58,093 bases of DNA from Candidatus Buchananbacteria bacterium (GCA_903888345.1 CAISTG010000060.1:1-58093), one strand, 5' to 3'. Counted from the stretch's first letter, positions 5,662 through 26,570 are shown. Made by a program: numbers and translations. Notes: generated by a model from the sequence alone, not told the origin.

Positions 5662-6360
5662 TTAAGCACGACTAACGGCCAAAACAATGCAGTCTATTTT
5701 TTTAAAGCCAAATTTAGACAATTCAGCTGCCGCTTCTAGGGCTGTTGATCCGGTAGTATAGACATCATCAATTAATACTAATTCCCTGCCCCAGCTGGCA
5801 GCTAACTCCCGATAATTAACTGCAAAAATTCCCCTGACATTAGCTAAGCGGTCAATTCCACTTAATTCGGCTTGGGGTGGATTATTAACTCTTCTCAATA
5901 ATAGCTGACTGTTCACGCTACTAGCTGACTCTTGTGCAAATATTTCAGCGATTAATGCTGATTGATTGAAACCGCGGCGTAATAATTTCTGATGATGTAA
6001 GGGAATAGGAATAAAGAACTTACCAGTCACCGCTTCTGGATTACGTCGACAAAAATCTTTAATTCTTATCCGCCAAAATTCTTCGATTAAGCCAGTGACA
6101 TATTTATACTTAATTTCCGTAATCAAAACAGCGATATGGGAGTCGTGATAATCAGCCAACGACCACAGTCGTCTAATTGCACTATGTTGCTTTTGACATT
6201 CACTAGTTTTACAAATAGGACAAAGACTAACAGTGCTGGTTATAATTTTATTATCACACAAGGGACAAACAAAACTACCAGTAATACCACAACCAATGCA
6301 ATGACGAGGGAATAATAAACCACCAATGGCCGCAATTTGGTTATTTCCAGGCCACGCCAT
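5662..6360 (-). CDS. comF: ComF-family protein (competence-associated phosphoribosyltransferase-like, ComFC type)
   Basis: N-terminal double CxxC zinc finger (CIGCG...CPLCD, CPIC) and a C-terminal PRTase motif (LVLIDDVYTTGST). The start is the ATG at 6360, or the TTG at 6363. Either one overlaps the 3' end of the upstream gene, which ends at 6341. Confidence 0.85.
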   Translation of the reverse strand: MAWPGNNQIAAIGGLLFPRHCIGCGITGSFVCPLCDNKIITSTVSLCPICKTSECQKQHSAIRRLWSLADYHDSHIAVLITEIKYKYVTGLIEEFWRIRIKDFCRRNPEAVTGKFFIPIPLHHQKLLRRGFNQSALIAEIFAQESASSVNSQLLLRRVNNPPQAELSGIDRLANVRGIFAVNYRELAASWGRELVLIDDVYTTGSTALEAAAELSKFGFKKIDCIVLAVSRA

Positions 6361-6907
6361 CAATTTTCCATTCGTTATTTAGCATAACCGCCGTCAATTC
6401 TAAATCTGCCAAAAAAGTTTTTGTCTCTTGGCTGGAACCGACGGTTTGGGTACGTTGGGTTTTTACTAAGACCGTTGCATTAGTAGCATTAGAACTAACT
6501 AGCTGCAAAGACAGTGCCTTAGTAGAGAAGCCAATAAAGGCAGTGGTCGAGGCCACATCAGCCTGAATTCTATTAGCTAAGGATTTGGTCATAAACGATT
6601 GCAAGTCAGCTAAGTTCTTGGTTGGCTCATCACTCGAATAACTGCCATATCGCTCAGCAAAAGACATAGCTAACTGGCGCAAACCCAAGGGATAACTCTT
6701 ATCTTCCTTAAGCCGCTCTGCGGTTGCTGGCAATACTACTGGTGGCTCATAAACGCCACCACTAACCGTAGAGGTTGCTGCTACCGGCTGATTATTAACA
6801 ACAGTTGGCTGTGGTCGTAAAAACCACCACGCGATTAACGCGACAATAACAATAAAGGCGAGACCTAAAGAACCAAATATAATTAATCTGCGTTGTTCGT
6901 CTGACAT
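6341..6907 (-). CDS. hypothetical N-terminally membrane-anchored protein (candidate VirB8-like scaffold)
   Basis: A single N-terminal TM helix (LIIFGSLGLAFIVIVALIAWWF) is followed by a ~150-aa beta-rich domain ending in NNEWKIDGVAWK. Size, topology and position directly after VirB4 match VirB8/TcpC-type components. There is no sequence-level proof. Confidence 0.55.
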   Translation of the reverse strand: MSDEQRRLIIFGSLGLAFIVIVALIAWWFLRPQPTVVNNQPVAATSTVSGGVYEPPVVLPATAERLKEDKSYPLGLRQLAMSFAERYGSYSSDEPTKNLADLQSFMTKSLANRIQADVASTTAFIGFSTKALSLQLVSSNATNATVLVKTQRTQTVGSSQETKTFLADLELTAVMLNNEWKIDGVAWK

Positions 6908-6942
6908 AATATGAAATGATTATTAAATTGTTTATGATCAAT

Positions 6943-8868
6943 CTATGCCGGTTCTTCTTGATTGCCTTGCATCGCCTCAGAAAATTCTTTTTTGGCCTGT
7001 TCGATTTCCAGCAGCTGTCGCGGATCAGAGGTAATTAATTGATCTTCGGAATAAGAAGCGATCGTCTTAATGGCCACATGCTTAGCGCCAGCAAAGAAAA
7101 TCCCCTCGCCCACGCCACATTCTAACAGCAAATATTTCTCACCCTCAGTTAATAAGAAGGTTTTCTGAATCAAATCAATGGCGGCAGTGGATTGTTTTAA
7201 TAATAGTTGTAAAGCCGAGTTATTAATAATCGCCTGCCCGTAAGGTGAGGTTAAGAAATCATTAACATCCTGAGTGATCGTCGTCACGCCCAAATAATAT
7301 TTGCGGCAGCGTTTAACTAGGGCAAAAATGAACTTGGCCGAGTCTTCGCGTTGCATCAACCACCACGCCTCATCCACCACCAAAATTCTCTTTTTTAATT
7401 CGCTGCGAACAACATTCCAAATATAATTAACAATCATGTAGATAGCGAGTGGCTTTAACTCGTCTTCTAAATCACGTACCGAAAAAACTACTAACTGATT
7501 ATCCAATTTAACATTAGTCGGATTATTCAATAAGCCAGCAAAAGTGCCTTCGGTATATTTCTTCAAACGAATAACAATATTATCAGCGCCCTCCATACCT
7601 TCTAAAATATCCTGAAAATCCTGCATCACTGGTGGCTCCACATAACGCAAATCCGCCTCGGGCGTAATATCTTTTTTAGCATAAGTTTCCAACAACGCGC
7701 GATCAATAATCGAATCTTCCTCCGGTGTCGCATCGCCAATCATTAAACGAACTAAACCTTTGACCGTAATAACAGCATTTCTAATAATATCGGCGGGCTT
7801 CGCATCCTCACCAATAGCGCGCGGCAAATCAAAAGGATTAATTTTGGCTTCCGAATTCAGTGAAATATTAATATAGGTGCCACCAACCGCTTCACATAAA
7901 TGACTGTATTCGCGTTCCGGATCAATAATAATAACATCCGTACCAAACATCATCGAGCGCAACACCTCCAATTTAACCGCGTAAGATTTACCAGACCCCG
8001 CCTGAGCAAACACCACCATATTAGCATTTTGCATCGAGAAGCGATCAAAGAGTATCAAACTGTTGTTGTGACGATTAATGCCATACAAAATTCCCTTATC
8101 TGAAGTTAAATCAGATGAAACAAAGGGAAACGATGAGGCCGCCGGTGACGAATTCATATTAATAAACACCTGCAATTCATCAAACGACATTGGCAACGTA
8201 GAATTAAAGCCTTGTTCGGCTTGATAAAATACGCGACGCGAATAAATCAAGGTCTGTCCAAAAAAATTCTCTAATCGTTCGGAAGTTTGATCCAACTCCT
8301 CTAGCGTTTTCGCGTACAAAGTTACATAAAGCGAAATCTGAAAAAAATGTTCAATTCCTTGCGTTAAATCATCACGTAATTTTTCCATGTCCCGCAAAGC
8401 AGTTTCGGCCAAGGGATCACGCGGCGCGCCTTTTTCAGCCGCCCCCACAATTCCCGCCTCTAACACACCCACTTTTTTCTTAAGTTGTTTTAAAATTACC
8501 GAGGATTTAACGGGATAAAAATACAAAGCAATATCTGCCGTAATATCCATATTAATAATCGGCGCAAACCAACCAACTGAAATATACCTCGGATATTCAA
8601 AGACAAATATCGTACGGACAAACTGTTCGCCCAATTTCAAATAAGATGGATTAATTTCCATCGCTACTGGCGAAATCAAATCGCGAACTGTCACAATGCC
8701 CCGACGGTAAATTTTCTCTTCCTCCAACATTTCTTTGGAGGTTTCAATCGCTTTGATTTCTTGTTGCTTCAGTTGTGCCGAAGTCGGTTGCGGCGCGACC
8801 TTAAAACCACTGACTGGTGGTGGCGGCGGGAAATTATTATTTTGTTGTAGGTCTTGTGGTTCAAACAT
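6943..8868 (-). CDS. virB4: VirB4/TrsE/PrgJ-family type IV secretion ATPase (ATPase portion)
   Basis: Walker A (FAQAGSGKSYAVK), Walker B (ILVVDEAWWL), the Gram-positive VirB4 signature region (DLISPVAMEINPSYLKLGEQFVRTIFVFEYPRYISVGW) and a conserved C-terminal GVTTITQ block. Confidence 0.9.
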   Translation of the reverse strand: MFEPQDLQQNNNFPPPPPVSGFKVAPQPTSAQLKQQEIKAIETSKEMLEEEKIYRRGIVTVRDLISPVAMEINPSYLKLGEQFVRTIFVFEYPRYISVGWFAPIINMDITADIALYFYPVKSSVILKQLKKKVGVLEAGIVGAAEKGAPRDPLAETALRDMEKLRDDLTQGIEHFFQISLYVTLYAKTLEELDQTSERLENFFGQTLIYSRRVFYQAEQGFNSTLPMSFDELQVFINMNSSPAASSFPFVSSDLTSDKGILYGINRHNNSLILFDRFSMQNANMVVFAQAGSGKSYAVKLEVLRSMMFGTDVIIIDPEREYSHLCEAVGGTYINISLNSEAKINPFDLPRAIGEDAKPADIIRNAVITVKGLVRLMIGDATPEEDSIIDRALLETYAKKDITPEADLRYVEPPVMQDFQDILEGMEGADNIVIRLKKYTEGTFAGLLNNPTNVKLDNQLVVFSVRDLEDELKPLAIYMIVNYIWNVVRSELKKRILVVDEAWWLMQREDSAKFIFALVKRCRKYYLGVTTITQDVNDFLTSPYGQAIINNSALQLLLKQSTAAIDLIQKTFLLTEGEKYLLLECGVGEGIFFAGAKHVAIKTIASYSEDQLITSDPRQLLEIEQAKKEFSEAMQGNQEEPA

Positions 8869-8871
8869 AAA

Positions 8872-9552
8872 TTACATGGTAGTTTCCATCATTAATTTAT
8901 TAATGTCCTCGAGTTTTTCGTTACGAGCGACTGTGGGATTATAAGTATTATAAAATAATTCAATTAACGACTGTGTATCGAGCACCTGCGAACGCAAGCC
9001 CATACTCGCCAAGCCACTTAAAATCTTATCCACCACAATAAACAGTTCTTTTTGACGGGAGAGAAAGATTTTTTGGCTGACACTAACTACGCCCGTTGGT
9101 GAAGCCACATCGCCAACCCGCTGCCAGAAACTGCGACCCTTGGACTGAAATGGCTCATATGGCACGATTACATAAAAACGTTTAGTCATAATATTGCCCA
9201 TTTGCACTAGTTCTGTCACATACTGACGATATTCGGTCATTTGAATTTTTAGCAAATCATTAGTCTGATGCGCCTCCGCTTCTTTCAGATAATTCAGATA
9301 TTGTTCTAAATCTAATTGGCGCGATTGAATTAAAATCTGTAATGGTAGATCCAATGAGTTTAAAAAACTAACATAAGCAGAAATAATCGCATTTTGCTCG
9401 TCGTCAGACTTCAGGGCAAAATTAATTGAGGAAACCAAAAGCACAGCCCGTAAGGAGCCATCTTTCATGATCACTACATCATCCTTAATCTCAGCAATCT
9501 GTAAATATTTCTGAGTTGAGGGAGTCGCTTTAGTTGCACTTCGATTTGCCAT
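8872..9552 (-). CDS. VirB4 N-terminal-domain-like protein (separate ORF, in frame with the ATPase ORF)
   Basis: The motif pattern QKYLQIAEIKDDVVIMKDGSLRAVLLVSSINFALKSDDEQNAIISAYVSFLNSLDLPLQILIQSRQLDLEQYL matches my memory of the N-terminus of Tn916 Orf16 / TrsE-type VirB4 proteins. It is separated from the ATPase ORF by one TAA and one codon, in the same frame. Confidence 0.7.
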   Translation of the reverse strand: MANRSATKATPSTQKYLQIAEIKDDVVIMKDGSLRAVLLVSSINFALKSDDEQNAIISAYVSFLNSLDLPLQILIQSRQLDLEQYLNYLKEAEAHQTNDLLKIQMTEYRQYVTELVQMGNIMTKRFYVIVPYEPFQSKGRSFWQRVGDVASPTGVVSVSQKIFLSRQKELFIVVDKILSGLASMGLRSQVLDTQSLIELFYNTYNPTVARNEKLEDINKLMMETTM

Positions 9553-9569
9553 AATAATTTAAATAAATA

Positions 9570-10001
9570 CTAAAAGCCATTTTCGCCGTGATAAATTCCA
9601 CCAGTGTCAACAATCAAAGCGATTTCCGAAATTTTGGAAGTGGTGACCGGGCGACGAATCAAGGGCGATTTAGGAACGTCTGGCGGTTGCGCCAATAAGT
9701 CGCGCAAATATTTTAAATCTTGCGATTTTTGCCAAACTTTCAGCTTCGGGTTCTTAATTGTTTGAATAAAATTTAATAAAAATAAATGGAATGGTTGACC
9801 ATTAATTCGAGCAAAGGCTACTACCACGGTCAGCGATAAAACGATCAAGCCGAAAACAACAAAAGCCGGAAAATCCAAAGTTTTATACATAATCACCTCA
9901 ACCAAGCCGCCAACAATCAGTTCAATAAACTGGCGGACCGTCACCGGACCAATAATCTTGTCTTCAACATCGAGAAATTGTGGGACTACTACTTGTTGCA
10001 T
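9570..10001 (-). CDS. PrgI/VirB3-like small membrane protein
   Basis: The N-terminus (VPQFLDVEDKIIGPVTVRQFIELIVGG) followed by two TM helices is the typical PrgI-family layout. It lies immediately upstream of the VirB4 ORFs. Confidence 0.6.
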   Translation of the reverse strand: MQQVVVPQFLDVEDKIIGPVTVRQFIELIVGGLVEVIMYKTLDFPAFVVFGLIVLSLTVVVAFARINGQPFHLFLLNFIQTIKNPKLKVWQKSQDLKYLRDLLAQPPDVPKSPLIRRPVTTSKISEIALIVDTGGIYHGENGF

Positions 10002-10040
10002 ATCCTATCGTCATTACTTTATTTCTATTTGTCATTCCGG

Positions 10041-10118
10041 ACTCGATCCGGAATCTCCGTGTGCGTCCTAAGCAAGTGCCCAGATTCCGGCTCAAGGCCG
10101 GAATGACGGAGAACGAAA
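10041..10118. repeat. composite palindromic element of the GTCAT...ATGAC family
   Basis: GTCATTCCGG-actcgat-CCGGAATCT and AGATTCCGG-ctcaagg-CCGGAATGAC are each hairpins, and they are inverted copies of one another. The element fills the only sizeable gap (118 nt) inside the secretion gene array. Confidence 0.8.
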
Positions 10119-10119
10119 T

Positions 10120-11499
10120 TTAAAATCTTAAAGCACGATTCAATTCCATTACCGCATGAAGCTCGTCGATTGATAAAGTTGGCTTACCAGCCAATAACCT
10201 TTCGCGAACTGTTTCTTCCATGTTCTTTCCCTCAGTCATCGCCGATTGACCCAACAAACGATAAAATTTATTAACTTCGTTTTTATGCCAGGCCGTAATG
10301 CCCTCCAAACGCTTGGAGAAACTCTCCTCGCCCAGTAATTCAATTTTTTCTTTAATTTTATTAACAGCGGCATTCGGATCAGCCGCCAAGCGACGAAAAT
10401 CAATCAATGTCATATTTTCTAATTCCTCAATCGGACCCATTAATCGCTTCTCGAATCGCACATCATCCAGATTGGGTTTATTGGCATTTTTTGAATTCAA
10501 AACGGTTTCGGGAATATGCTGACTCGCGACATAAGGCGCGGGACTAGGCGCGGGCAACTTCTCGCTTGCCACTGCCGGCATCGGAGCTTGATTGACACTT
10601 ACCTGCTGCCCTGAAGACTCAGACTCTATCATAATTTTACCATGTTGACCGCTGACGGGCAATGATTTTTCAAAAGTCGGTTCATTTTTTGTGTCAACAA
10701 CTGCCGGCAACGCTTCCGTTAATGTTTGTGGCAAAGCTGCACCAGGGAACTTAATGACCGGTAGCCCATCCTCTTCTTCGATATGGATAGCTGCTGCCGG
10801 ACTTTTTTCTTCTACTTTTATCGTTTCTGGAGCCGTTACTCGCACTGGCCGGGGCAAGGCGGGTCGCCTAGTCTTCGATTCACCAGTATTTAAATCATAA
10901 TTCTTAAGCGCTGTTATAATCACCTCTGCCTGAGTCTCCGAAAATTCCATACCTCCCACCTTATTGCTTTTCATTAAAATTTCCTTCGTTTCCAAGTCAT
11001 CTCGAACCTGTTTCAAACGCGCTATTATAATATTGCGTAAGCGTTTGAATAATACATCATCGGCTAGATTCAAATTTAAACGATTAATAATATTGGCGGC
11101 AATAATCTCATAATCAATAACCGTTGCGGTCGATGCCTGTTGTTTATATTTCTCCACCTCAGCTTCATCTTCACGCGAAAAAGTTAAATGCGAATTATTA
11201 ACGGCAGGACCAGCATCTGCTTTTTCATTAACAGTTTGTCCGATTTTTTCCACTAAAGCGCCGAAACGACTCTTGATCTGTTCCGCTAAAAATTGATTGA
11301 AATCATAAGTCGCTTTCAAATACTCGGTCAGATTAGCGTAATCAATATCGCGCAACAACAGGTCGATCAAGATTGAAGTTGACTTGATACCGAAATTTTC
11401 ATCGAGATTATCTAATTCCGCCAAAATATCAGCCTGAGAAATGCTGTCTCGGACCGCTTCGGATAATTTATTAAGTTTTGCCAGGGAACTATTAGCCAT
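10120..11499 (-). CDS. hypothetical protein, no TM helix, with a central Pro/Ala-rich linker
   Basis: Long ORF tightly packed in the array, 5 nt after the upstream gene. No motif recognised. It has helical N- and C-terminal domains and a P-rich middle (PALPRPVRVTAPE...LPAPSPAPY). Confidence 0.7.
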   Translation of the reverse strand: MANSSLAKLNKLSEAVRDSISQADILAELDNLDENFGIKSTSILIDLLLRDIDYANLTEYLKATYDFNQFLAEQIKSRFGALVEKIGQTVNEKADAGPAVNNSHLTFSREDEAEVEKYKQQASTATVIDYEIIAANIINRLNLNLADDVLFKRLRNIIIARLKQVRDDLETKEILMKSNKVGGMEFSETQAEVIITALKNYDLNTGESKTRRPALPRPVRVTAPETIKVEEKSPAAAIHIEEEDGLPVIKFPGAALPQTLTEALPAVVDTKNEPTFEKSLPVSGQHGKIMIESESSGQQVSVNQAPMPAVASEKLPAPSPAPYVASQHIPETVLNSKNANKPNLDDVRFEKRLMGPIEELENMTLIDFRRLAADPNAAVNKIKEKIELLGEESFSKRLEGITAWHKNEVNKFYRLLGQSAMTEGKNMEETVRERLLAGKPTLSIDELHAVMELNRALRF

Positions 11500-11504
11500 A
11501 ATAT

Positions 11505-12005
11505 TTACTGATTGTTCATTAAAAATTCATCTAACTTTTTTTGCGTTAACCCAATTTCCTCTAACGCCAATCGCTTTTCTAGGGGTGGCATTTTCTGCCA
11601 ATCATATTGTGCGATTTTTTCCTTCAGATCCAAGACTCGTTCTGTGGCCAAGCTTTTAACTGGCTCATTTTCTATTGCCGGCAATACCAAGCCTTCTAAT
11701 CCTAGACTTTTAACAAATTCATCAAATCCAGAGATATACGGTTTTAGCTCGAGGAAGCGATGCGTTAAAATCGCCACCACAATATCGCTGATTGTCGCCG
11801 GATCTTTTTTCAAGGCCGCACTCAAACGCTCCTGAAATCCATCAATTTTATCGGAGCCAATAATAACTCGAGTCATCAAACGAATGACCTCCAAAAATTC
11901 CGCATCCGTCAATTGAAATGACGCCAACCAGGGAGTATCCGACTTAAGATACTCCAGATCATTATCATCATCAACAATTTTATTTTCGTCCTCGTTCATA
12001 GTCAA
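11505..12005 (-). CDS. hypothetical acidic cytoplasmic protein
   Basis: ORF packed 3 nt after the VirB6-like gene. No TM helix and no recognised motif. Confidence 0.7.
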   Translation of the reverse strand: MTMNEDENKIVDDDNDLEYLKSDTPWLASFQLTDAEFLEVIRLMTRVIIGSDKIDGFQERLSAALKKDPATISDIVVAILTHRFLELKPYISGFDEFVKSLGLEGLVLPAIENEPVKSLATERVLDLKEKIAQYDWQKMPPLEKRLALEEIGLTQKKLDEFLMNNQ

Positions 12006-12008
12006 GAA

Positions 12009-15587: not shown

Positions 15588-15617
15588 AATTAAATTATTG
15601 ATAGACCACACTTGTTC

Positions 15618-15653
15618 GTCATTGCGAGTCCGCCGTGGCGAACTCACAATGAC
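15618..15653. repeat. palindromic element of the GTCAT...ATGAC family
   Basis: GTCATTGCGAGTccgccgtggcgaACTCACAATGAC lies in the 78-nt gap between the giant gene and the VirB6-like gene. Confidence 0.75.
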
Positions 15654-15665
15654 GCAGAGAAATTA

Positions 15666-18600: not shown

Positions 18601-21600
18601 CCAATCGGTTCGGCTGTTCCGTTGTATCCATTTTCAAAATTACCATTGACCACACTACTACTCTCACCATTTTGCTTCATCATGTCATAATACTTCAAGT
18701 TTGCCCCCGCAAAACCAGTTGCTCCCGCAAAGCGCGAAACATTATCAGCCGTGATCATTGTACTCGAAGCGTTGTCGACAAAATCGCCGCATTGGCCATT
18801 ATCATCAACATAATCGCAAGCCTTAACTTGTAAACAGCGATCATTGACTGAAAAGAAAGGGTTATTGTCATTAGCCTGCGCTTTTTCGTAAGTCGTACAG
18901 GTCAGCCAATTACTGCAAGTACGGTTAGGCTTAACCTTCAAAATGGCGTTACTATCACCTTCACTGCCATTAGACAGACTAGGATTAACAGCATTCTGTG
19001 CGCCGCTTAATTGCATATTTAATGCAAAGGTGTCCGGCGCTCGATAAGTCAGATAGTCATAGAAGCGCTTAGCGACTGTCGCACTAGTGTTAGGTAAAAC
19101 CGAATAATCAAGACCATCGCGTTCATTAAAGAGAACACAACCCTTATTGAAATCAACGACACCAGCACACTCAGATTTATTGACTGAATTCTTAGTGGCA
19201 TAATACACACCAGCAATAGTGATCTTGTCGCCACCGGCACGCGTGTCCTCGTTAAAATCAAAGACATGACCATTTTTGGTAGCAAGATTATAGAAACAAT
19301 CGGTTTTATTTGGTTCATTAATATAGAAATACGATCCTGACACCTTGCCGCCCAATAAAGCGAAGGTCTGGCCATCAACTGTCTCGCTGGTTAACGGTTG
19401 GGAAGCGCAACTACCAGCGATTGGCGTGAAATTCAAACCACCAACAACACTATAACTATAGAGAGTATTGGCTTTCAGTTTAACTTTAGAGCAACTCGAG
19501 GTAGCCTGACCATTAACTTGGCAAGCGCTCGACAAGACCTGATTAGTATAGATATAAGGTAGCGGATCAACATATTCGCTACAACCACTCTGGGCAGTCG
19601 GACAAGTTCCGGCCCAACCATCATAGCTCGGATTAATCGCCATCGTCACATTATCCACTGGTCCCACTGGCTGACTCTTTTTGACGGCCGGCTCGTAACC
19701 AGTGCCCAGAGTCAAATTAGTAGTCGTCGCACACTTTTCTTCGGTACCAGAAACATACCAACCCTCAGCCAAAGTGGCATTCGGACGACCGTAAGCACAA
19801 ACTTTACCATGTGGATCCTTAAAGTAAGTCGTGGAATCATTAGTAGTATATTGTTCACACCATTGCTCCTCGTGCTTACACATCGAAGTATCGTAAGTAT
19901 CGGGATCATTTTTTAAAAATAGTGTCGAATAGCCCAGGGTCTGATCCCAGCGATCAATTAGCGGCAAGCCAACTGCCGTACAACCCTTAGCTGAAGCCTG
20001 ACAAGAGAACTCGGCGCGATTAACCATATAGACAGTTTCGTCGGCCGGCACCGTGACCACGTCAGCATCATAACCATTGACATCCGTTCCTGCATTAACT
20101 GTCGTCGCCTCCGGCGCTTCGCTATTGTGGGTATCAACTAATGCCTCACAACCAACGGCTTCCTCGCGACACAACGAAGAGAAAGATCTTAAATACCAAG
20201 GATTCTTAAAACGGTCAGAATAGGCTTGGCAACCAACCATCTCACCGATCGAGCAACGCCCGGAAGAAGAATCTTGGCAAGTACCAGAGGCAATCGCTTT
20301 TTTGCCATCAGCATCATCCATTCGATTATCACAAGAAATTGGAGTGTACCAAGAATTATCAATCAAATAAACCTTATTGCTAATTTCTTTGAGAATTACA
20401 TTATCTAAATAAATCTTTTGACCGCCCAAATTGAAAACCAAATACTCATCCACGGCTGGATCCCAAGAAACAAAAACTGGACCCAACTCATAATAACGCC
20501 AATTGTTCGTGATTTGCACACGACCACCTAGCAAATTATCACCCACAACACGCGAATAAGTGAAATAATCACTGGCTGGAGCGTCACTGAATTTAATGCT
20601 ACTAGCGTAATAAGACTGATCACCTTTCGCCCAGAAACTTAAGATGTAGGTTTTATTTTTGGTTAAAGTAACCTTTCTCTGGATATTATCGGAGGCCAAG
20701 GCATTAGACAAGGAATTACCGCCCGGGAAAGTGGCTTCGGTCGAAATCTTTAAGCCAGTCTTACCAAGCGGATTACGCATATCAAACCAAGCATCATCCG
20801 TGCTCGTACCGGCCGCAAAATCCTGCACATCAATCACATTTCTAACGTTATTGCCTTGATTACCCGTATAAGCGCGGCAACCCTTAGCCGCTGCCGAACA
20901 AGAACGCGCCTCAGTCGAAATCGACATATAGACACACTCACTATTCTTATTAAAATAACCATGAGACTCAATACAATCAGCTTGCGCTTGTGCTACTGTC
21001 GCCTGAGTTTGAGTGCGACGATAAGGATGGCAGTCAGCCGCCACAGTAACGGTTTTTGACAGTAAGCGATAGGCAATATTACCATTAACATCATACAGCT
21101 CGCGACAATCCGGGTTAGTAATCATCTGATCTTGTGAACAGATGGCGGCACTACTGGCATCATCACAATAATTCTGACCCGCTTTGACATTACTACTGTC
21201 GAAATATTTCAAATTAGTACAAGCGGCCGTACTAATATTAGATTTCTTAAGGGTATAGGATTTTAATTGATAACCAGTCGTGTCTGATCCTTCCCAAGTA
21301 TAATAGGCGGCATCATCAGCAGCCGGTTTTTGGCAAGCCCGCAACTCCGAAAAATATTCTTTAACTTCGGCGCCTTGACCAATGACATCTAAGTTGGTGA
21401 ACTCATCACAACCAGCATCCGCGGCAGAGCAATATTTTACTTTTGAGTCGGCAATAAATTGCTTGAAAGTAGAAGTAGCAAAGTAAGTGCTTTCTTGTTT
21501 AAAGACTTGATAGCCAACACACTCTGAACCACATAAATCCAAATTATCAACCACGCCCGGCACCAAAGGATCACCACTCGCCGGAGTATAAGCTTCGCAA

Positions 21601-24600
21601 CCAACCTCTTTTTTGGTACAAACTCCAGAATAAGTTGAGCACATTTCATTTCGATTCTGCAAAACGCTAGTTAACTCTGAAATCGTTTCTGGCCACTTAC
21701 CGCCCAAGGTTTTATAGCAATTGAAATAATCCGGGGCTTTCTTCAAATAGGAAACTTGATTAGCTAAACGCAAACTCGGATCATAAGCGCTATAGGCTGT
21801 GCCACTTAAATTACTTAAAGAAACTTTTTCCAACTTAAAGCTATCAACATTCACCGAGCCATTAACACCGCCAACAGTAAATTTCAAAACCTTGCCGCCC
21901 GCCGGAATTTTAAACCAGCAGGAAACACGTTCCAGGTCCGCGCTACTAGGCGCCGCATTTAAATTCAAACTATTAACGCCGCTCGCGACACAATTAGTGT
22001 CACTAGCAGCAATCGCTAAGTGATTATCACTAGAGGCCTCAGTAACAAAATATAAGTTCAAATTAGTTTGGGCTGCCACATTAGCGTCCGCTCGAGCGAC
22101 ATCATAAGCCAAATTATAATAATCGTTACTATCAACCGCGACCGATTTATTGAACAAACTAGCCGCTGGAATGGTTGCCCCGCCAGTAGCGTTAGCAATC
22201 CAAGCGGAATTCCAACCAGTCAAACCATGTTCAAAACCACCATTATAAATCAAATTGCCACCAGTATTAGCTTTATTACGCAAGAATAAGGAACAGCCAT
22301 CATCTTGAGCGCTGCAAGTGGCTGCATCACGATCTAGATATAAATTAGAGCTATTAGTTTTATTAGGCGCATTAACCGTGCCAGTAAACAACATAATACT
22401 GACCGAGTTCTGACAGGCGGCAGTCATTTTTTGAATTCTAAAATCGTCAAAATATACGTCCGCAATCGAAGCGGCGACAGTCGTAATAGCAATTGTGCTA
22501 GTCGAATGTCCTTTGCTGGAAAATTGTAAAACGTATTCTTTCCAATCACCTAAACTGCCGGCCAAGGTGTAACTAATACCCGCCAAATCATCGCTACCCG
22601 AGAGCACATTAATCTTCAGTAAGCCAGCCGTCACCGAACCCTTAGCCCAGAATTTTAATGAATAGTTGGCATTATTTTTATCCAAGGGAACATTTTCTAA
22701 TTTAGTCACCAATTCAACCGGATTATTGGAAGCAACTGTATGTAAAGACGCATTGCCGCTATGTTTTTGATCGGTAGCGCGATAAGCGCGATTACTTAAG
22801 TTAAAGTAAGCCAATTCATCAGACCAATATCTCGCATCACCGGCGGTCGCTGATTCTTCGAAACCATTATTAAAGCCTGTCCCGCCAATAACATTCCCCT
22901 GTTCATAACAAGCTTCCACCAAACAAGAAACAGCGCTCGGAGCCGTAGTACAGGTATTGCCACTCTTATTGAAGTTACAGGTCTTAGTGCTCGCCTCCCA
23001 GTTGCATTTGCTGTCTACCCCGGAACAGAGCTCTGGCGTACAAGTCTGAGTAATTTTTAACCGATTATTAACGCTGGCATTATGATATTGCTTCACTTTC
23101 CAACTCGCATCACCGCCAACCGTCAAAACTTGCGCGCCACTACTAAGAGCGTAAAGTTGTAAATCCTTGGCTTCGTTTAAAAACTCTCCATTCCAAATCG
23201 CTCCGGCCAAATTAAAATTAGTCGTCAAGGCTTGGCAGCCAACATTTAAATTAGAGCAATTAGAAAAATCAAGTGAGTTCTTTAAGAGCGAACCAGCAGT
23301 GCCACTACGACCACTATAAGTTTGACAGGTGTTATAAGCGGCTTGGCAACTATTGCCGACGTCCCATAAGGCGCGCTCTTCTGAGCAATAACCATAGGCC
23401 TTACAATTACCTTTACTATCGTCAGCCAAACATTGCTGCTCGTCGGCACAATAAGTATCGCGAGCAATATCACCCGTTTGATTATTGCCCGCTGAATTAT
23501 GGGCGCCAAAACCCTCGCGGCGGCAAAAAGCTTCATAAACTTTCAAGAGCCAATTAGGATTAACTAAACCCTTAAAAGCATCGGTATTACAATTATTGAT
23601 TCCCTGCCCATAATAACAATTCATCACTTCACCTAAGGTCCAACGCTTAGCGCTAACGCCAGCAGTTGTGGTCACTTCATTGTTATGGATTTTATTAGCG
23701 GCGATTTCCCAACCCACCGGAACAATGCGGTATTTTCTTAAAATTAAAATGCTGCGATAAGGAATTTCTGTTTCTAAGCTGTTGGTCTGACTAATAATCG
23801 GCGCGAAAGCGCGACCTAAAATATTGGTGCCATTAGAATCGCTCGGCAAATCTTTGACGTAAGTCATTTTCTTAATCTGCTCCGAAAACGAATTATCAAT
23901 AACACAGTCAGTAACATTAGGATTTAATTTAGCGCTATCAGAACAGCTGGCCAATTTCAATAAGACATCGTATTTATTACCAACCTTTTCTTTACTCGTA
24001 ATTAAATTCGCGAACTTATTTTCGGCTCCCGCGGCACCGGAAACGACCGGCGAGGAATTATAATTAAATAAATTAACCAAGGTATCAACGGCATCAGAAG
24101 CATTCAGTCCGAGCGGATTAGAATTAGCACCGGTACTACCTCCCGAATTAGTTGAAGCAAACAAACCAGTTTGCAAGCCGCTCAATAATTGCGACACCAA
24201 AGTATTGCCAAATTCTTCCACCATATCAGCAGCCGTATTAGTGAAAGTTGATAATCCCAATGTGGTGTTACTGTCGGCAGTTTTGTCACGAAAAGTATTG
24301 GCAACCACAGTGCCCGGCGTTAAGATTTTGCCAGCCACATTAGTAATATCCTTCCACAATCCAGTAGTTTCCGCTTTTTTGGTAGCGACATTAACCGCAT
24401 CACCCACATAAGAATTACGCTCATCAGCCATTTGGATCATAAAAGAAATGTCATTGGCTCCTGGTCGCATAGCATTACGATAATCAACGGCAAAGGAAGC
24501 GCTACTAATCGCACCTTCCCAATTGGTCATGATTTTTGAAAAACTACAAGAGGTACTTTTTTGAACTTGCTTATAATTAAGCGCCGTCTGAATCATGAGC

Positions 24601-25211
24601 TTCACCCGGAAATCTGGCTGACATAAATTGACGCCATATTGAGTGCCAATACCATCGATAAACTGTCCTAAAGCCGAGTCCGCTGTATTTTGTAAATAGG
24701 CGCCCCAACCCTCAGTAATAAACAATGGCTGCTGGCCCTTGCCACCGGATGCTACCCAGACGGCTGTGTCATGGGCTACTTGGCGGGAAAAAGTTTTTAA
24801 AGCTGATTTAAACGCAAACGCCAAAACTTCGCGTGCTTTGTCTTTGGTTTTAGCTTCGGCAATCAAAGCCAGTACTTGTTTTTTTTGGGCATCATCAGTG
24901 GCATCCTTAGTACATTGCGCTCCCGCTACTCCAATAGCATCATCATGTTCTTTACAATTCAAAGTAACGCCAGCCGGCAAACAGGGCACCGCTTTAGCAA
25001 TATTAAGCATCACCTGACACTTCCCAATCGTACCACCGTCATAGAGTGCTGGCGATTCCACCGCGATCGAATTGATCGAACTAATGGCATCTGCGCCCGC
25101 TCGAGCTGATGGCGCAAAAAATAAATTGCCGCCAACAAATAGCAGAAAGAAAATCACTAAGACCTTTGCGAACTTTTTGTTTTTAGGATTGCTAAAAACT
25201 ACTGGGATCAT
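15666..25211 (-). CDS. giant (3181 aa) secreted cysteine-rich surface protein with CBM-like jelly-roll modules and a C-terminal PKD-like domain
   Basis: Uninterrupted 9.5-kb ORF with a signal peptide (KVLVIFFLLFVGGNLFFAPSARA/G). It has many Cys residues in recurring x-GC-x-x-[YFL] contexts. Three N-G-x-F-E-x-G...W motifs typical of CBM4/9-like sugar-binding modules lie at ~22818-22876, ~22206-22245 and ~18592-18650. The WGDGD motif of a PKD-like domain lies at ~15901-15941. Confidence 0.85.
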   Translation of the reverse strand: MIPVVFSNPKNKKFAKVLVIFFLLFVGGNLFFAPSARAGADAISSINSIAVESPALYDGGTIGKCQVMLNIAKAVPCLPAGVTLNCKEHDDAIGVAGAQCTKDATDDAQKKQVLALIAEAKTKDKAREVLAFAFKSALKTFSRQVAHDTAVWVASGGKGQQPLFITEGWGAYLQNTADSALGQFIDGIGTQYGVNLCQPDFRVKLMIQTALNYKQVQKSTSCSFSKIMTNWEGAISSASFAVDYRNAMRPGANDISFMIQMADERNSYVGDAVNVATKKAETTGLWKDITNVAGKILTPGTVVANTFRDKTADSNTTLGLSTFTNTAADMVEEFGNTLVSQLLSGLQTGLFASTNSGGSTGANSNPLGLNASDAVDTLVNLFNYNSSPVVSGAAGAENKFANLITSKEKVGNKYDVLLKLASCSDSAKLNPNVTDCVIDNSFSEQIKKMTYVKDLPSDSNGTNILGRAFAPIISQTNSLETEIPYRSILILRKYRIVPVGWEIAANKIHNNEVTTTAGVSAKRWTLGEVMNCYYGQGINNCNTDAFKGLVNPNWLLKVYEAFCRREGFGAHNSAGNNQTGDIARDTYCADEQQCLADDSKGNCKAYGYCSEERALWDVGNSCQAAYNTCQTYSGRSGTAGSLLKNSLDFSNCSNLNVGCQALTTNFNLAGAIWNGEFLNEAKDLQLYALSSGAQVLTVGGDASWKVKQYHNASVNNRLKITQTCTPELCSGVDSKCNWEASTKTCNFNKSGNTCTTAPSAVSCLVEACYEQGNVIGGTGFNNGFEESATAGDARYWSDELAYFNLSNRAYRATDQKHSGNASLHTVASNNPVELVTKLENVPLDKNNANYSLKFWAKGSVTAGLLKINVLSGSDDLAGISYTLAGSLGDWKEYVLQFSSKGHSTSTIAITTVAASIADVYFDDFRIQKMTAACQNSVSIMLFTGTVNAPNKTNSSNLYLDRDAATCSAQDDGCSLFLRNKANTGGNLIYNGGFEHGLTGWNSAWIANATGGATIPAASLFNKSVAVDSNDYYNLAYDVARADANVAAQTNLNLYFVTEASSDNHLAIAASDTNCVASGVNSLNLNAAPSSADLERVSCWFKIPAGGKVLKFTVGGVNGSVNVDSFKLEKVSLSNLSGTAYSAYDPSLRLANQVSYLKKAPDYFNCYKTLGGKWPETISELTSVLQNRNEMCSTYSGVCTKKEVGCEAYTPASGDPLVPGVVDNLDLCGSECVGYQVFKQESTYFATSTFKQFIADSKVKYCSAADAGCDEFTNLDVIGQGAEVKEYFSELRACQKPAADDAAYYTWEGSDTTGYQLKSYTLKKSNISTAACTNLKYFDSSNVKAGQNYCDDASSAAICSQDQMITNPDCRELYDVNGNIAYRLLSKTVTVAADCHPYRRTQTQATVAQAQADCIESHGYFNKNSECVYMSISTEARSCSAAAKGCRAYTGNQGNNVRNVIDVQDFAAGTSTDDAWFDMRNPLGKTGLKISTEATFPGGNSLSNALASDNIQRKVTLTKNKTYILSFWAKGDQSYYASSIKFSDAPASDYFTYSRVVGDNLLGGRVQITNNWRYYELGPVFVSWDPAVDEYLVFNLGGQKIYLDNVILKEISNKVYLIDNSWYTPISCDNRMDDADGKKAIASGTCQDSSSGRCSIGEMVGCQAYSDRFKNPWYLRSFSSLCREEAVGCEALVDTHNSEAPEATTVNAGTDVNGYDADVVTVPADETVYMVNRAEFSCQASAKGCTAVGLPLIDRWDQTLGYSTLFLKNDPDTYDTSMCKHEEQWCEQYTTNDSTTYFKDPHGKVCAYGRPNATLAEGWYVSGTEEKCATTTNLTLGTGYEPAVKKSQPVGPVDNVTMAINPSYDGWAGTCPTAQSGCSEYVDPLPYIYTNQVLSSACQVNGQATSSCSKVKLKANTLYSYSVVGGLNFTPIAGSCASQPLTSETVDGQTFALLGGKVSGSYFYINEPNKTDCFYNLATKNGHVFDFNEDTRAGGDKITIAGVYYATKNSVNKSECAGVVDFNKGCVLFNERDGLDYSVLPNTSATVAKRFYDYLTYRAPDTFALNMQLSGAQNAVNPSLSNGSEGDSNAILKVKPNRTCSNWLTCTTYEKAQANDNNPFFSVNDRCLQVKACDYVDDNGQCGDFVDNASSTMITADNVSRFAGATGFAGANLKYYDMMKQNGESSSVVNGNFENGYNGTAEPIGWSGAYYKCADLSNCTGDPTESGLTWIPNNYSLSNLGNIAHEGSNYLKLNAGNAVISEPVELNSNNSYYVSLWVNTQNLNGQADGRTGDKPRAEVQLKFTSLQGAPITNTGIVELLSADGTRSTSIDPNDNGGWIFDNSLRLASGQQWTQLKYRIKVLNQSVNLSFALMNMNPDAEKNYDNTKLGGYSAWDEIEVKPVLNAGTDNEVNRSCRVYPTANAQACSYNDNNTNYYGQYGYCLLNDPSNAQQCLQWWPVDTIKGEMLSDFNGYYKERYPLYYCLAKAKSNPIDLNTAMANLGKFGQGGASSGYTTDNFSDLGSIQAVAFSPDNAWAPMFRYPFVYRFDFLGGIFGIGSTGSHKPIVGVLNATMYPKMVCPGIASLAQLIFGVDPANGFLCYREIAPSSNTVTTTNDTCDDSDPQCANKKEGLNWVEEHVIQPVKNLIISALKDIAGSLNLNQDDEWGGWGSVGTMVDVAGLIAVVHLELPWHTVMGFQESFIGKLASTAISLIGGLAQAVPVVGDLAHLFVMYGGMKIVTDQDLQYASRFTDPDPNRPGDVLGFVHYWDIGGAQGFGDKTGGAALGGNVSAKISPEYCTDIVQVVNSSGQNRAWAARLSSGSGYTGAGSDCVTDSLIAGTQCFYQSTYCLSSINNCKDSAGKDWKGNCDNLIGCPDSNAVVDPGDDNRILLCSGQNVNSVNKANGSGSRLAANYFCDSSNGYPAIFSKIYAYNGYNYLTTDYKPYGSVVAPITSQNPSNWDTRPGTSGKQPLYYETPFGSTAPYQARMGQVYTVDNLKALFAKSYGHWIWSNKDSGYQKVDSGLWSVPTEYCEDRNPSFSYRSSTNENIYCKIRPKFPISPSSTPSVVSNIGSIKFVFVVDVDANQLPLKSFEVNWGDGDKTSYAGVSLLNRPDQKNPLTLYHSYSYYSLIKNLPACSGAVSENCNDGTNVFKMRPNVKVIDNWNADNTAASVNFISVNGPQ

Positions 25212-25219
25212 ATTGAAAA

Positions 25220-26170
25220 TTATTGATTGTTTAATTTAGCTTGAAGTTGGGCAATAAAATTTATCTTTAACTGCTCATCAGTCACTGAAGCCAAAACTGA
25301 GGCGTCAGCACCGAGATTAGTAATCATTAACTGGCGAATTTGCGCGCCAGTTAGATTCTGTAAATCAGCAGCGCTTTTAATATTTAAAGCCTTTAAATCC
25401 AGACTCGTAGAGGTAGAATTAATCGTCTTAACAACTGCAGTTGAGGTGGCCGTAACCGCCTTAACCTTTAATCCTTGTAATCCACTAAAGTCATAGCCCT
25501 GACTAGTTAAGGTTTGTACAACATCGGGATTATCGTTCAAATAAGTCGAAAATTCTGTCATAATTTCAGCGTCTGATAATGCACTCACTTCGGTATCGGT
25601 CAAACCAGTTTGCTTCATCATTTCTCTAATAACAGCAGGGGTAATAACTGGCGCCGACGCCGTTATAGCACTGCCAGTCAAACTTGGAGCCGCATAAGTC
25701 GAGGTGCCAGTATCCGCACCGGCCGAAAAACAAACTTGCCCCTCAGGACAATTGGGATCAGTGCCACGCTTGACCTCATCGCCATCGCTAATGCCATCAC
25801 TGTCAGAATCGGCAATATAAGGACTTGTGTTGTATTGGTTGACTTCCAAATAATCAGTTAAGCCATCCTGGTCAGTATCAATAGTTTGTTGAGCTAATAA
25901 CGCTTGTTGCTGCAATTCTGTTGCCGCTGCCTGGTCTTTAGCAGCCTTAGCCAAAATCGTTGAAAACGGATTAGTTAAATTAAAATAAAAGACCAATAAG
26001 CCAAAAAGCATGGACCCCAGGCCCACGACGATAACTAAAATTGATCTGAATTTTTCTTGGCGACGCAACATTTCAGACTGAGCCGACCGATTACCATCGG
26101 CCAATTCCGACTCTACGCCATTAACGCCAGAAAAATTATTCCAACCACTGTTTTTTTCTTCACCTTCCAT
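25220..26170 (-). CDS. membrane-anchored protein with thrombospondin-type-3-like Ca-binding repeats
   Basis: Cytoplasmic N-terminus and a TM helix (ILVIVVGLGSMLFGLLVFYF), then DTDQDGLTDYLE and DSDSDGISDGDEVKRGTDP repeats (~25750-25880) and a T/S/A-rich C-terminal domain. This is the first gene of the array, ending 8 nt before the giant gene. Confidence 0.75.
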   Translation of the reverse strand: MEGEEKNSGWNNFSGVNGVESELADGNRSAQSEMLRRQEKFRSILVIVVGLGSMLFGLLVFYFNLTNPFSTILAKAAKDQAAATELQQQALLAQQTIDTDQDGLTDYLEVNQYNTSPYIADSDSDGISDGDEVKRGTDPNCPEGQVCFSAGADTGTSTYAAPSLTGSAITASAPVITPAVIREMMKQTGLTDTEVSALSDAEIMTEFSTYLNDNPDVVQTLTSQGYDFSGLQGLKVKAVTATSTAVVKTINSTSTSLDLKALNIKSAADLQNLTGAQIRQLMITNLGADASVLASVTDEQLKINFIAQLQAKLNNQ

Positions 26171-26196
26171 GTGAGTTGTGGATAAGTTATGAATTA

Positions 26197-26225
26197 ATTA
26201 TACCATATTTTAGATTTGTAACCAA
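26197..26225 (-). promoter_or_regulatory. candidate promoter of the secretion gene array
   Basis: On the minus strand: TTGGTT, a 17-nt spacer and an extended -10 (TGGTATAAT). The -10 lies ~27 nt upstream of the ATG at 26170. Confidence 0.3.
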
Positions 26226-26294
26226 GTATATATTAGGACATAAAGTAATAAAATTTTCAAAGCATATTTATCACTTCGCGAGCCATCTCTCTTC

Positions 26295-26387
26295 GTCAGT
26301 ACAAGCTTTCATTTTTTTGTCATGACGAGTCTTCATTCTTTGTTATAGCGAGCTTTCATTGTTTGTCATGGCGAGCTTTCATTCTTT
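26295..26387. repeat. tandem array of four degenerate 23-24-nt units
   Basis: The contiguous units are GTCAGTACAAGCTTTCATTTTTTT, GTCATGACGAGTCTTCATTCTTT, GTTATAGCGAGCTTTCATTGTTT and GTCATGGCGAGCTTTCATTCTTT. They run directly into the palindromic unit at 26388. Confidence 0.8.
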
Positions 26388-26479
26388 GTCATTCCGGGCT
26401 TGACCCGGAATCTGAGCCCAATACTCTAAAATAAGATTCTGGCTCAAGCCTGCCTACCGGTAGGCAGGGCAGGAATGAC
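26388..26479. repeat. composite palindromic element of the GTCAT...ATGAC family
   Basis: GTCATTCCGGGcttgaCCCGGAATCTGAG ... AGATTCTGGCTCAAGCCtgcctaccggtaggcaGGGCAGGAATGAC. The architecture matches 10041-10118, with an extra internal hairpin. Confidence 0.75.
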
Positions 26480-26493
26480 TGGGCGCGATAGGC

Positions 26494-26570
26494 GTCATCC
26501 TGAATAAAATGAAGGATCCCATGTTTAACACACGAGATCCTTCACTCCGCTTCGCTATATTCAGGATGAC
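26494..26570. repeat. palindromic element of the GTCAT...ATGAC family
   Basis: GTCATCCTGAATA...TATTCAGGATGAC with an internal hairpin GAAGGATC...GATCCTTC. It contains CCGCTTCGCTA, which is shared with the dispersed repeat at 29737 and 54569. Confidence 0.75.

Follow-up and report, generated by a model that had tools for sequence, protein, structure and literature searches.

Type IV secretion systems (T4SSs) of the Patescibacteria are by now an established new branch (2025 FEMS review), and extended VirB6 proteins, known for example from Rickettsiales, have been noted as an unexplained class (PMC12857230). A survey of these bacteria (Quinonero-Coronel et al. 2025, PMC12102498) counted 2,474 virB4 genes and described a monophyletic Patescibacteria VirB4 clade related to MPF-FATA, together with a separate TrsD, PrgI/VirB3, VirB6 and VirB2-like pilins. 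In the same survey VirB8 homologues were rare and 'nearly all' of them came from ABY1, relaxases were present in only 103 genomes, homologues of the type IV coupling protein (T4CP) mostly lay far from virB4, and no adhesins such as PrgB were detected in Patescibacteria T4SSs; ABY1 loci commonly held comF, recG and radA, with KsgA among the frequent neighbours. In Saccharibacteria the T4SS was found by transposon sequencing (Tn-seq) to be essential for epibiotic growth, no coupling or relaxase protein being recognisable, and comEC proved dispensable in S. epibionticum (Wang et al. 2023, PMC10633639). Effector delivery is the favoured view for the Saccharibacteria system (PMC10633639, PMC11665869), and both this idea and the analogy with ComB have been published for Patescibacteria (PMC11665869). 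Essentiality of the system has so far been tested in a single species. Here we analysed a 58,093-nucleotide (nt) stretch of DNA from a Candidatus Buchananbacteria bacterium (GCA_903888345.1, CAISTG010000060.1:1-58093; hereafter the window, to which all coordinates refer), which carries a T4SS gene array at 5662-26170.

A first-pass annotation of this DNA had presented the array as a poorly described repurposing of a T4SS. The repurposing is largely right, but it was already published and it was overstated for comF, dprA and ssb. Since the relaxase-less T4SS, the separate TrsD and the comF/recG/radA context of ABY1 are all found in PMC12102498, and the ComB-like and host-contact readings in PMC11665869 and PMC10633639, that part of the finding is a rediscovery. 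What is added here is a module of a thrombospondin type 3 (TSP3) protein, a giant surface protein and VirB6, with the size of the giant's family; a pilin, hydrolase and DsbA module at radA; and loci in which the system is split with the giant following VirB6. Our literature searches returned no described giant or adhesin beside an ABY1 T4SS. The fixed link of the T4SS with the giant and its TSP3 anchor is the one part of which we found no description in the literature searched. The question of function is thereby sharpened for ABY1, with a fixed giant, pilin-domain hydrolases plus DsbA, and radA and comF at operon-like distances.

The inner-membrane translocon and its relatives

The ORF finder used for prediction of open reading frames (ORFs) returned ten co-directional ORFs on the minus strand between 5662 and 26170, reproducing the packed array and the coordinates of the first-pass annotation, with internal gaps of -23 to +118 nt. 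In transcription order, with lengths in amino acids (aa), these are:

25220-26170, minus strand: TSP3-repeat membrane anchor, 316 aa, first gene of the array (Pfam, hydropathy)
15666-25211, minus strand: Cys-rich secreted giant, 3181 aa (signal-peptide-like N-terminus, PF02018)
12009-15647, minus strand: extended VirB6/TrbL-like polytopic protein, 1212 aa (PF04610 matches of orthologues, transmembrane segments)
11505-12005, minus strand: cytoplasmic protein, 166 aa (no transmembrane segment, no Pfam/NCBIfam family)
10120-11499, minus strand: cytoplasmic protein, 459 aa (no transmembrane segment, no known domain)
9570-10001, minus strand: PrgI/VirB3-like small membrane protein, 143 aa (PF12666)
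8872-9552, minus strand: TrsD-like VirB4 N-terminal domain ORF, 226 aa (NF041427)
6943-8868, minus strand: VirB4 ATPase body of the MPF-FATA/CD1110 type, 641 aa (NF045971, PF19044)
6341-6907, minus strand: VirB8-like bitopic protein, 188 aa (AlphaFold2 and Foldseek)
5662-6363, minus strand: ComF (ComFC/GntX-type) protein, 233 aa (TIGR00201, GntX)

The successive gaps measure +8, +18, +3, +5, +118, +17, +3 and +35 nt, and the VirB8-like gene and comF then overlap by 23 nt if a TTG start is used, or by 20 nt from the ATG one codon later. For comparison we used two sets of relatives, whose loci bear L-numbers. A VirB4 genome scan found at least 485 related stretches, of which the best 80 were analysed as VirB4-centred loci, and two scans with motifs conserved in the giant yielded 44 + 79, in total 123, giant-centred loci.

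The 641-aa protein exceeds the cut-off of the NCBIfam model NF045971 (conju_CD1110; 345 bits vs 325, model positions 175-734 of 752) and matches PF19044 with E 2e-31; its Walker A (GSGKS) and Walker B (VVDEAW) motifs, read directly in the sequence, are intact. The adjacent 226-aa ORF, separated from virB4 by the 3-nt gap, matches NF041427 TrsD (E 4.6e-9) and also positions 4-119 of the CD1110 VirB4 model and positions 101-233 of VirB4_plasma, and in the alignment of its orthologues the mean column identity is 59%. Because this TrsD-like ORF matches the N-terminus that is missing from the ATPase, VirB4 is split here into an N-domain ORF and an ATPase ORF. The 143-aa PrgI/VirB3-like protein reached 32.9 bits with PF12666 (gathering score 27), and its position is conserved in 77 of the 80 VirB4-centred loci.

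Two further components were less easily recognised. The 1212-aa protein contains approximately 9-10 transmembrane segments within aa 19-510, followed by about 700 hydrophilic C-terminal residues. The window protein itself has no Pfam match, while among 40 aligned orthologues there are 11 with a PF04610 TrbL match (best E 6e-6), and it is on the hydrophobic segments, the long hydrophilic tail and these orthologue matches that we base the name 'extended VirB6'. Conservation is concentrated in aa ~190-540; the C-terminal ~700 aa showed no detectable similarity in Pfam, NCBIfam and PDB profile searches. For the 188-aa protein, AlphaFold2 produced from an alignment of 38 homologues a model in which a membrane helix at the N-terminus is connected by a linker to an NTF2-like domain (mean pLDDT 86.6). 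Its best Foldseek matches in PDB were mostly VirB8-like, namely OrfG of ICESt3 (E 2.7e-4), PrgL of pCF10 and TcpC (3ub1), followed by CagV and the VirB8 proteins of Rickettsia and Bartonella, in a range of E 3e-4 to 8e-3 which is shared by other NTF2-like folds (ARC6/PARC6, CaMKII hub). A weak Pfam TcpC match (E 3e-4) was not reproduced in Pfam scans of 41 VirB8-like orthologues, so the VirB8-like assignment rests on the fold. Profile searches of the VirB8-like, TrsD, giant and VirB6-like families against PDB sequences gave noise only. The VirB3, VirB4 N-domain, VirB4 ATPase, VirB6 and VirB8 assignments proposed earlier thus hold in profile or structure tests. Together PrgI/VirB3, the split VirB4, the extended VirB6 and the VirB8-fold protein make up a complete monoderm inner-membrane translocon.

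Pfam was run on the window ORFs of at least 100 aa, except those nested in a larger annotated ORF. Among the ORFs scanned over the 58 kb there was no match to relaxase, VirD4/TcpA or integrase families, in agreement with the first-pass annotation, and the sole coupling-ATPase signal in the window was VirB4's own sub-threshold similarity to a VirD4-like model (E 0.064). Neither flanking repeats nor an integrase nor a compositional shift was found around the array within the window, and the GC content is even throughout (0.38-0.44). The array is flanked by tRNA-Ser/Ser/Arg, recG and radA on one side and by rsmA on the other.

The best 80 VirB4 relatives are 68-87% identical to the window protein and all come from metagenome-assembled genomes. 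The informative labels among them are Buchananbacteria, Falkowbacteria, Magasanikbacteria, Parcubacteria and 'Patescibacteria group'; the named lineages are ones that we take to belong to the GTDB class ABY1. The block of the 459-aa gene, PrgI, TrsD, VirB4 and the VirB8-like gene is present in the 80 loci wherever the contig reaches, rsmA-TSP3-giant-VirB6-like stand on one strand in all but a few of the 123 giant-centred loci, and the remaining array genes follow the VirB6-like gene wherever the flank reaches. This order, recurring in 80 + 123 loci, is far beyond chance. The housekeeping position is likewise the same in more than 100 species, with rsmA upstream and comF/tRNA/recG/radA downstream, and the chromosomal setting between housekeeping flanks that had been claimed for the window is shared by many species. 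Many TPA bins with the locus are labelled 'uncultured Gammaproteobacteria' (L003, L005, L006, L010-L013 and others), and single bins Nanoarchaeota, Methylomirabilis, Omnitrophota or Tangfeifania; these odd-taxon bins look mislabelled or contaminated.

All genes are intact across the 80 + 123 loci. In comparison with the closest relative, L001, the proportion of synonymous differences (pS) is saturated at 0.73-0.93, and that of nonsynonymous differences (pN) is 0.085 for VirB4, 0.136 for TrsD and up to 0.48 for VirB6. The T4SS genes are under strong purifying selection, and from the saturated pS and low pN we conclude that the system is maintained and not decaying. The nearest plasmid-borne VirB4s, from Firmicutes and Actinobacteria, are only 30-35% identical, which would fit an old monoderm conjugative ancestry. 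The array is chromosomal. Most likely it represents, in its ABY1 (Buchananbacteria-like) form, the vertically inherited T4SS of Patescibacteria, which most likely derives from monoderm (MPF-FATA) conjugation machinery and no longer serves conjugation. That the array constitutes a functional, non-conjugative Patescibacteria T4SS is in our view almost certain.

The two cytoplasmic proteins contain no hydrophobic segment and have no Pfam or NCBIfam match. The 459-aa protein is Pro-rich in its middle and has a conserved ~120-aa domain at its C-terminus; its gene is found ahead of the PrgI gene in 74 of the 80 VirB4-centred loci, the contig being too short in the other six. Pfam scans of 41 orthologues revealed no known domain or recurring family in it, and its family profile found no relative among PDB sequences. 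Residues 20-130 of the 166-aa protein, which is poorly conserved elsewhere, match the N-terminal part of a single ~425-540-aa protein in L002, L003, L008 and L010, where that protein stands in the position of the 459-aa gene. The 166- and 459-aa genes may therefore derive from a partial duplication or a split. We also considered that the two are paralogues, and BLAST found no similarity between them.

The giant surface protein and its membrane anchor

The first two genes of the array encode a membrane-anchored and a secreted protein. The TSP3 protein has one transmembrane segment at aa ~40-62 by hydropathy and two bacterial thrombospondin type 3 (Ca-binding) repeats (PF18884 TSP3_bac, E 1e-8); across 39 orthologues the repeat signatures (DTDxDGLxD / DSDxDG...TDPNCP) show conservation of 90% or more. 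The giant carries a signal-peptide-like N-terminus and 98 Cys residues (3.1%). One CBM_4_9 module lies above threshold at aa 1510-1575 (PF02018, 36.3 bits vs 25.9, E 8e-9), and further N(G/N)xFE starts typical of CBM_4_9-type modules were seen by eye at aa 781, 990 and 2189; BLAST found no internal repeats in the protein.

Homologues of the giant fall into at least 129 clusters of ~1,800-4,100 aa, nearly all of 2,500-4,000 aa; the orthologues have a median length of 3112 aa. Their product names are 'hypothetical protein' or domain-based (carbohydrate binding, dockerin type I, vWA domain-containing), and their sources are named Patescibacteria-type or just 'bacterium'. According to precomputed annotation CBM_4_9 occurs in most of them, whilst dockerin, LamG, VWA and fn3 modules vary. 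Conservation is concentrated in blocks at aa 130-650, 1150-1450, 1600-1850, 2000-2200 and 2400-2500 and in the last 230 residues; the lectin-like (CBM_4_9-type) stretches are variable between homologues. The N-terminal domain (aa ~130-650) was found in 1249 clusters at 50% identity, 650 of them at E <= 1e-30; it sits N-terminally in nearly all of the 150 matches listed, and most of these proteins are 2000-3900 aa long. AlphaFold2 modelled this domain poorly (aa 100-700, alignment of 26 sequences, pLDDT 52), and Foldseek on the model found no match.

The first-pass annotation had coupled the giant and the TSP3 protein to the T4SS genes, and both are indeed conserved neighbours of the VirB6 gene. 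In 102 of 106 loci the giant is immediately preceded by the TSP3 gene (median gap 7 nt), and the VirB6-like gene follows the giant in 38 of 42 loci, at 18 nt here and at a median of 53 nt. Synteny further upstream fades (Der, Pth and DprA are kept in 3/47 loci), whereas that of the TSP3-giant block does not; of the other upstream genes, MFS and FemAB are kept in 30/47 and 25/47 loci, respectively. In one genome rsmA-TSP3-giant-VirB6 is on one contig (L117, JAQTMH010000001.1) and PrgI-TrsD-VirB4-VirB8 on another (L050, JAQTMH010000004.1). In L117, as in L118, L120 and L123, unrelated genes (e.g., for a PEP-utilising enzyme) come after VirB6, and VirB4 is on another long contig. Since the two blocks occur on separate contigs, the system can be split, with the giant staying with VirB6. 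From this linkage, the giant and the TSP3 protein are probably functional partners of the T4SS. The giant carries a Sec signal, and for this reason we do not take it for a T4SS substrate. Its family of ~1250 clusters provides a candidate host-binding part, just as the DNA genes adjacent to the T4SS provide candidates for the cargo.

DNA-processing neighbours and the pilin-domain module

The remaining features of interest lie beyond comF or in the two long non-coding gaps:

1-690, plus strand: VirB2-like pilin-domain protein, C-terminal 229 aa, cut by the window edge (BLASTP to L003 protein)
696-2018, plus strand: radA, neighbour gene (Pfam zinc ribbon, KaiC/AAA_25, ChlI/Lon_C)
2619-4689, minus strand: recG, neighbour gene (Pfam RecG_wedge, DEAD, Helicase_C)
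4690-4765: tRNA-Arg, overlapping the 5' end of the longest recG ORF
4793-5299, minus strand: 168-aa membrane protein (two helices next to each other, no known family), placed between the tRNAs and recG
10002-10119, minus strand: 118-nt gap between the 459-aa gene and the PrgI gene, the array's only long internal gap
26171-26582, minus strand: leader region of 412 nt between rsmA and the TSP3 gene

The 233-aa protein matches TIGR00201 over positions 1-188 of 190 (E 8.7e-24, 84.5 bits vs a naming cut-off of 233.6) and the GntX model with E 5.9e-23, also under the NCBI naming cut-off; Pfam matches to DZR_2 and Pribosyltran were weak and under their gathering scores. It appears to combine an N-terminal Cys-rich zinc ribbon with a phosphoribosyltransferase-like domain, and judged by its sequence it is clearly a ComF homologue and a candidate for the ComF function. 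We counted what follows the VirB8-like gene in the 60 loci with at least 1.5 kb beyond it: comF on the same strand in 34, radA in 12 and other genes in 14. Relatives show a median of 6 nt between the VirB8-like gene and comF. Where radA comes first, recG and the gene of the 168-aa membrane protein are on the opposite strand, as is comF in L052; the comF..radA block is therefore inverted. As comF is inverted or absent in some loci, the T4SS does not require co-transcription with it; such co-transcription appears to be common, not required. Neither dprA nor ssb, which had been cited as supporting context, serves this purpose: dprA is near the array in only 3/47 relatives, and ssb lies ~30 kb from the array, directly after the gene of ribosomal protein S6.

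In the window radA starts 5 nt after the pilin-domain ORF, and in L045 and L024 it starts within a few nt of the corresponding gene; a pilin-domain gene directly precedes radA in 14 of 30 loci. In the remaining radA loci, radA is ~1.5 kb or less downstream of the VirB8-like gene, with a DsbA-like gene in many of them. The recG gene is 10 kb or less from VirB4 in ~35 of the 80 loci. We regard radA and recG as conserved neighbours, not demonstrated machine parts.

Residues 3-37 of the ORF at 1-690 align to the final stretch of the T4SS_pilin domain (PF18895) in a protein of L003 (L003:17693-18709, minus strand; BLASTP E 5e-7), in which the domain was found by Pfam itself. L003 has the same arrangement as the window, with the module beyond radA; on radA's strand the order is a PD40-like gene, DsbA, pilin plus SLT transglycosylase, pilin, radA (L003:16329-21717, minus strand). 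The same module was found in L045 (12481-18266, plus strand), L024, L036, L042 and L068, and it always ends at radA. In relatives the module comprises two pilin-domain proteins, of which one is fused to an SLT transglycosylase while others bear Cys-rich tails, together with a DsbA-like thioredoxin and a protein with PD40 repeats. In the 14 loci where other genes follow the VirB8-like gene, these include 450-500-aa T4SS_pilin (VirB2-like), DsbA-like and PD40-repeat proteins, and radA starts a few nt from the last pilin-domain gene. Within 10 kb of VirB4, pilin-domain genes were counted in 22-23 and DsbA in 26-27 of the 80 loci.

Since the ORF at 1-690 aligns with the pilin domain, two T4SS modules converge on the interval comF-tRNAs-168-aa protein-recG-radA. 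The T4SS gene set, as read from these alignments, extends past 5662-26170, to the ORF at 1-690, and the earlier view of a minimal core misses the module with pilin-domain, transglycosylase and DsbA genes, which forms part of this locus in relatives and begins at the left edge of the window. The fusion of pilin and transglycosylase presumably fills the VirB1 (wall hydrolase) role, and a DsbA would suit the Cys-rich giant and the Cys-rich pilin-domain proteins. The C-terminal part of the ORF at 1-690 (GCALAVDRL ... SHTGVV) looks by eye like a Cys/His cell-wall hydrolase; Pfam gave no match. The idea that the giant replaces pilins in ABY1 was ruled out, as pilin-domain genes are present in ABY1 loci.

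Scans for sigma-70 promoters and intrinsic terminators returned sites no more frequently than in shuffled sequence. Because the consensus promoter scan was uninformative, the leader was read by eye, and it contains an extended -10-like site (TGgTATAAT, i.e., TGnTATAAT-like) at 26205-26197. It also holds a hairpin element and a 23-nt tandem repeat of 3.8 copies with 80% matches at 26304-26392 (Tandem Repeats Finder). In the 118-nt gap a perfect-stem hairpin is formed from the CCGGAATGAC motif (RNA fold -42.7 kcal/mol, z = -3.7), and it is not followed by a T-run. Copies of this motif are found at 10028, 10098 and 26385, making an inverted-repeat element common to both long non-coding gaps (10002-10119 and 26380-26420). 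The gaps of relatives at the position of 10002-10119 are mostly 50 nt or shorter, and since the relatives are thus mostly without the 118-nt gap, the hairpin element looks like a species-specific REP/MITE-like insertion.

The other window ORFs are housekeeping genes or have no Pfam match; the former include Der, Pth, DprA, TopA, RelA/SpoT and ParAB and, again by Pfam, ProRS-like, IF3, L20, S6, SSB, SmpB and EF-P. Several observations were made on these and on the neighbour genes. The recG ORF as listed ends at 4751 (GTG start) and clashes with tRNA-Arg; as the tRNA occupies 4690-4765, the true recG start must be downstream of 4690. The 168-aa membrane protein keeps its place beside recG in at least 17 relatives. 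The rsmA ORF (26583-27422) and an acyltransferase ORF (27344-28393, minus strand) overlap by 79 nt, and the rsmA start is probably further in. Directly after smpB (52277-52726) a tmRNA lies at 52729-53117 on the plus strand (Rfam, 117.6 bits), unreported by ARAGORN. Finally, a 595-aa ORF at 37341-39128 (minus strand), which has no Pfam family at relaxed thresholds, adjoins a truncated Clp-like AAA protein (39188-40114).

Possible roles of the array and comparison with known systems

The explanation that we consider best, with a probability of about 0.4, is that the array would encode a host-contact translocon of ABY1 bacteria with three accessory sets. The giant would dock the small cell onto host surface glycans via its variable lectin modules, held at the membrane by the TSP3 protein and possibly by the long VirB6 tail; read from gene linkage, the two proteins would be the extracellular, host-binding and wall-spanning part. 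Pilin-domain hydrolases would open the wall and DsbA would form disulfides, and the two conserved cytoplasmic proteins (166 and 459 aa) would make up the third set. VirB4 would power translocation of macromolecules through VirB3, VirB6 and VirB8 across the contact. The cargo might be host-derived DNA or nucleic acid, passed on to ComFC, RadA and RecG. We lean towards DNA import because comF and radA stand at operon distances from T4SS genes, here and in many relatives, with recG between them, and because VirB4-only importers exist (ComB, Ced); as an identification of the cargo it is tentative. The full combination is improbable: in it, giant and TSP3 protein would form a host-docking, wall-spanning structure attached to the extended VirB6, as the extracellular working end of the machine, and host DNA would be imported for processing by ComFC, RadA and RecG. 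Were this combination true, ABY1 would provide the first case of contact-dependent DNA import by a T4SS in a monoderm bacterium, and these auxotrophs would have a route to nucleotides.

A number of points weigh against such a role. The function proposed for ABY1 members is drawn solely from gene linkage, and adjacency is weak evidence here, rsmA being as constant as the giant and MFS and FemAB often being kept. comF is adjacent in only 57% of the informative loci; in the others it is either missing or encoded on the opposite strand. The Sec signal of the giant speaks against its being a T4SS substrate, its contact with VirB6 is our own conjecture, and its N-terminal domain combines a low pLDDT with no structural match. 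A coupling protein may be encoded elsewhere in the genome, VirD4 being far from virB4 in many Patescibacteria (PMC12102498). The S. epibionticum T4SS, moreover, is essential independently of comEC; as the T4SS is essential while comEC is dispensable, its essential role in that species is not classical transformation.

For Saccharibacteria effector delivery is the favoured view (PMC10633639, PMC11665869), and the ABY1 system could likewise export effectors or toxins into or onto the host, with the giant as an adhesin only and comF, radA and recG as neighbours by genome history. Export is the usual direction for a T4SS and most non-conjugative T4SSs export proteins; the dispensability of comEC beside an essential T4SS in S. 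epibionticum also speaks for it; the 166- and 459-aa proteins could be substrates, chaperones or adaptors, and comF is missing from 43% of the informative loci. Yet Pfam and NCBIfam revealed neither effector-like nor immunity genes in the array, nor a toxin domain; no coupling protein is nearby, though most effector translocators use one, and three single-stranded DNA/recombination genes abut T4SS genes at distances between -23 and +5 nt. We consider export somewhat unlikely, yet a serious rival. The same holds for the reading that the giant and its TSP3 partner serve the envelope or adhesion in general and are kept between rsmA and virB6 by frozen gene order, with no functional tie to the T4SS. 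The equally constant position of the unrelated rsmA, the frequent retention of MFS and FemAB and the Sec-dependence of the giant all suit this explanation, as does the distribution of the giant family, apparently confined in our searches to the ABY1-type lineage, when the T4SS spans all Patescibacteria classes. Against it stand the short same-strand gaps (median 7 nt between TSP3 and giant; 18 nt here and a median of 53 nt between giant and VirB6), the persistence of the giant beside virB6 where the T4SS is split over two loci, and the decay of the upstream synteny next to an rsmA-TSP3-giant block that persists; in addition, PrgB of pCF10 is a precedent for an adhesin with a monoderm T4SS.

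That the array is a decayed integrated conjugative element, stripped of relaxase and coupling protein and headed for loss, is practically excluded. Its VirB4 does belong to a conjugative family (CD1110 of CTn2), and relaxase and T4CP are absent from the window. The genes are nevertheless intact, pS is saturated while pN is low, and the same chromosomal site and order are found in more than 100 species; there is no integrase, flanking repeat or compositional shift, and the Saccharibacteria homologue is essential. The host-contact translocon remains our preferred explanation, and it can be set beside several known systems.

Helicobacter pylori ComB is, like the present array, a chromosomal T4SS with VirB4 and with no coupling protein or relaxase, and it works with competence proteins of the ComFC/ComEC type; DNA uptake by the ABY1 system, to which gene linkage with comF, radA and recG points, would be the parallel. 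ComB differs in belonging to a diderm and in having VirB7, VirB9 and VirB10, and its genes are not known to adjoin comF. The Ced system of Sulfolobales likewise combines a VirB4/HerA-type ATPase with a single membrane, and it imports DNA between contacting cells. It differs in its CedA membrane components, its archaeal envelope and the lack of an adhesin giant, and the similarity is at the level of the ATPase superfamily only (VirB4 vs CedB, weak NCBIfam similarity, E 7e-11, far below cut-off). With the extended VirB6 proteins of, e.g., Rickettsiales, the 1212-aa protein shares a polytopic core and a large hydrophilic domain, although here in a monoderm host.

The conjugative MPF-FATA systems (CTn2 CD1110, pCF10 Prg, pGO1 Trs) share the VirB6-VirB3-(TrsD)-VirB4-VirB8 content and order, a VirB4 above the CD1110 cut-off, and a VirB8-like fold matching PrgL, OrfG and TcpC. 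In contrast to them, the window has no relaxase, VirD4/TcpA or oriT context, and the array is not on a mobile element. The large adhesin PrgB, encoded upstream in pCF10, is a functional parallel to the giant. The two are unrelated in sequence, and the giant is ~2.5 times larger.

Closest of all is the T4SS of the Patescibacteria clade, represented in S. epibionticum by SEML1_0006-0019 (PMC10633639). It shares the FATA-related VirB4, separate TrsD, PrgI/VirB3, VirB6 and VirB8, the chromosomal position near ksgA/rsmA, the lack of a relaxase or nearby T4CP, the comF/recG/radA context in ABY1 and nearby VirB2-like pilin-domain genes. The published descriptions mention neither a giant CBM-bearing protein nor a TSP3 anchor, and whereas Saccharimonadia possess arrays of small pilins, the pilin domains here are the N-terminal parts of 340-500-aa transglycosylase or Cys-rich fusions.

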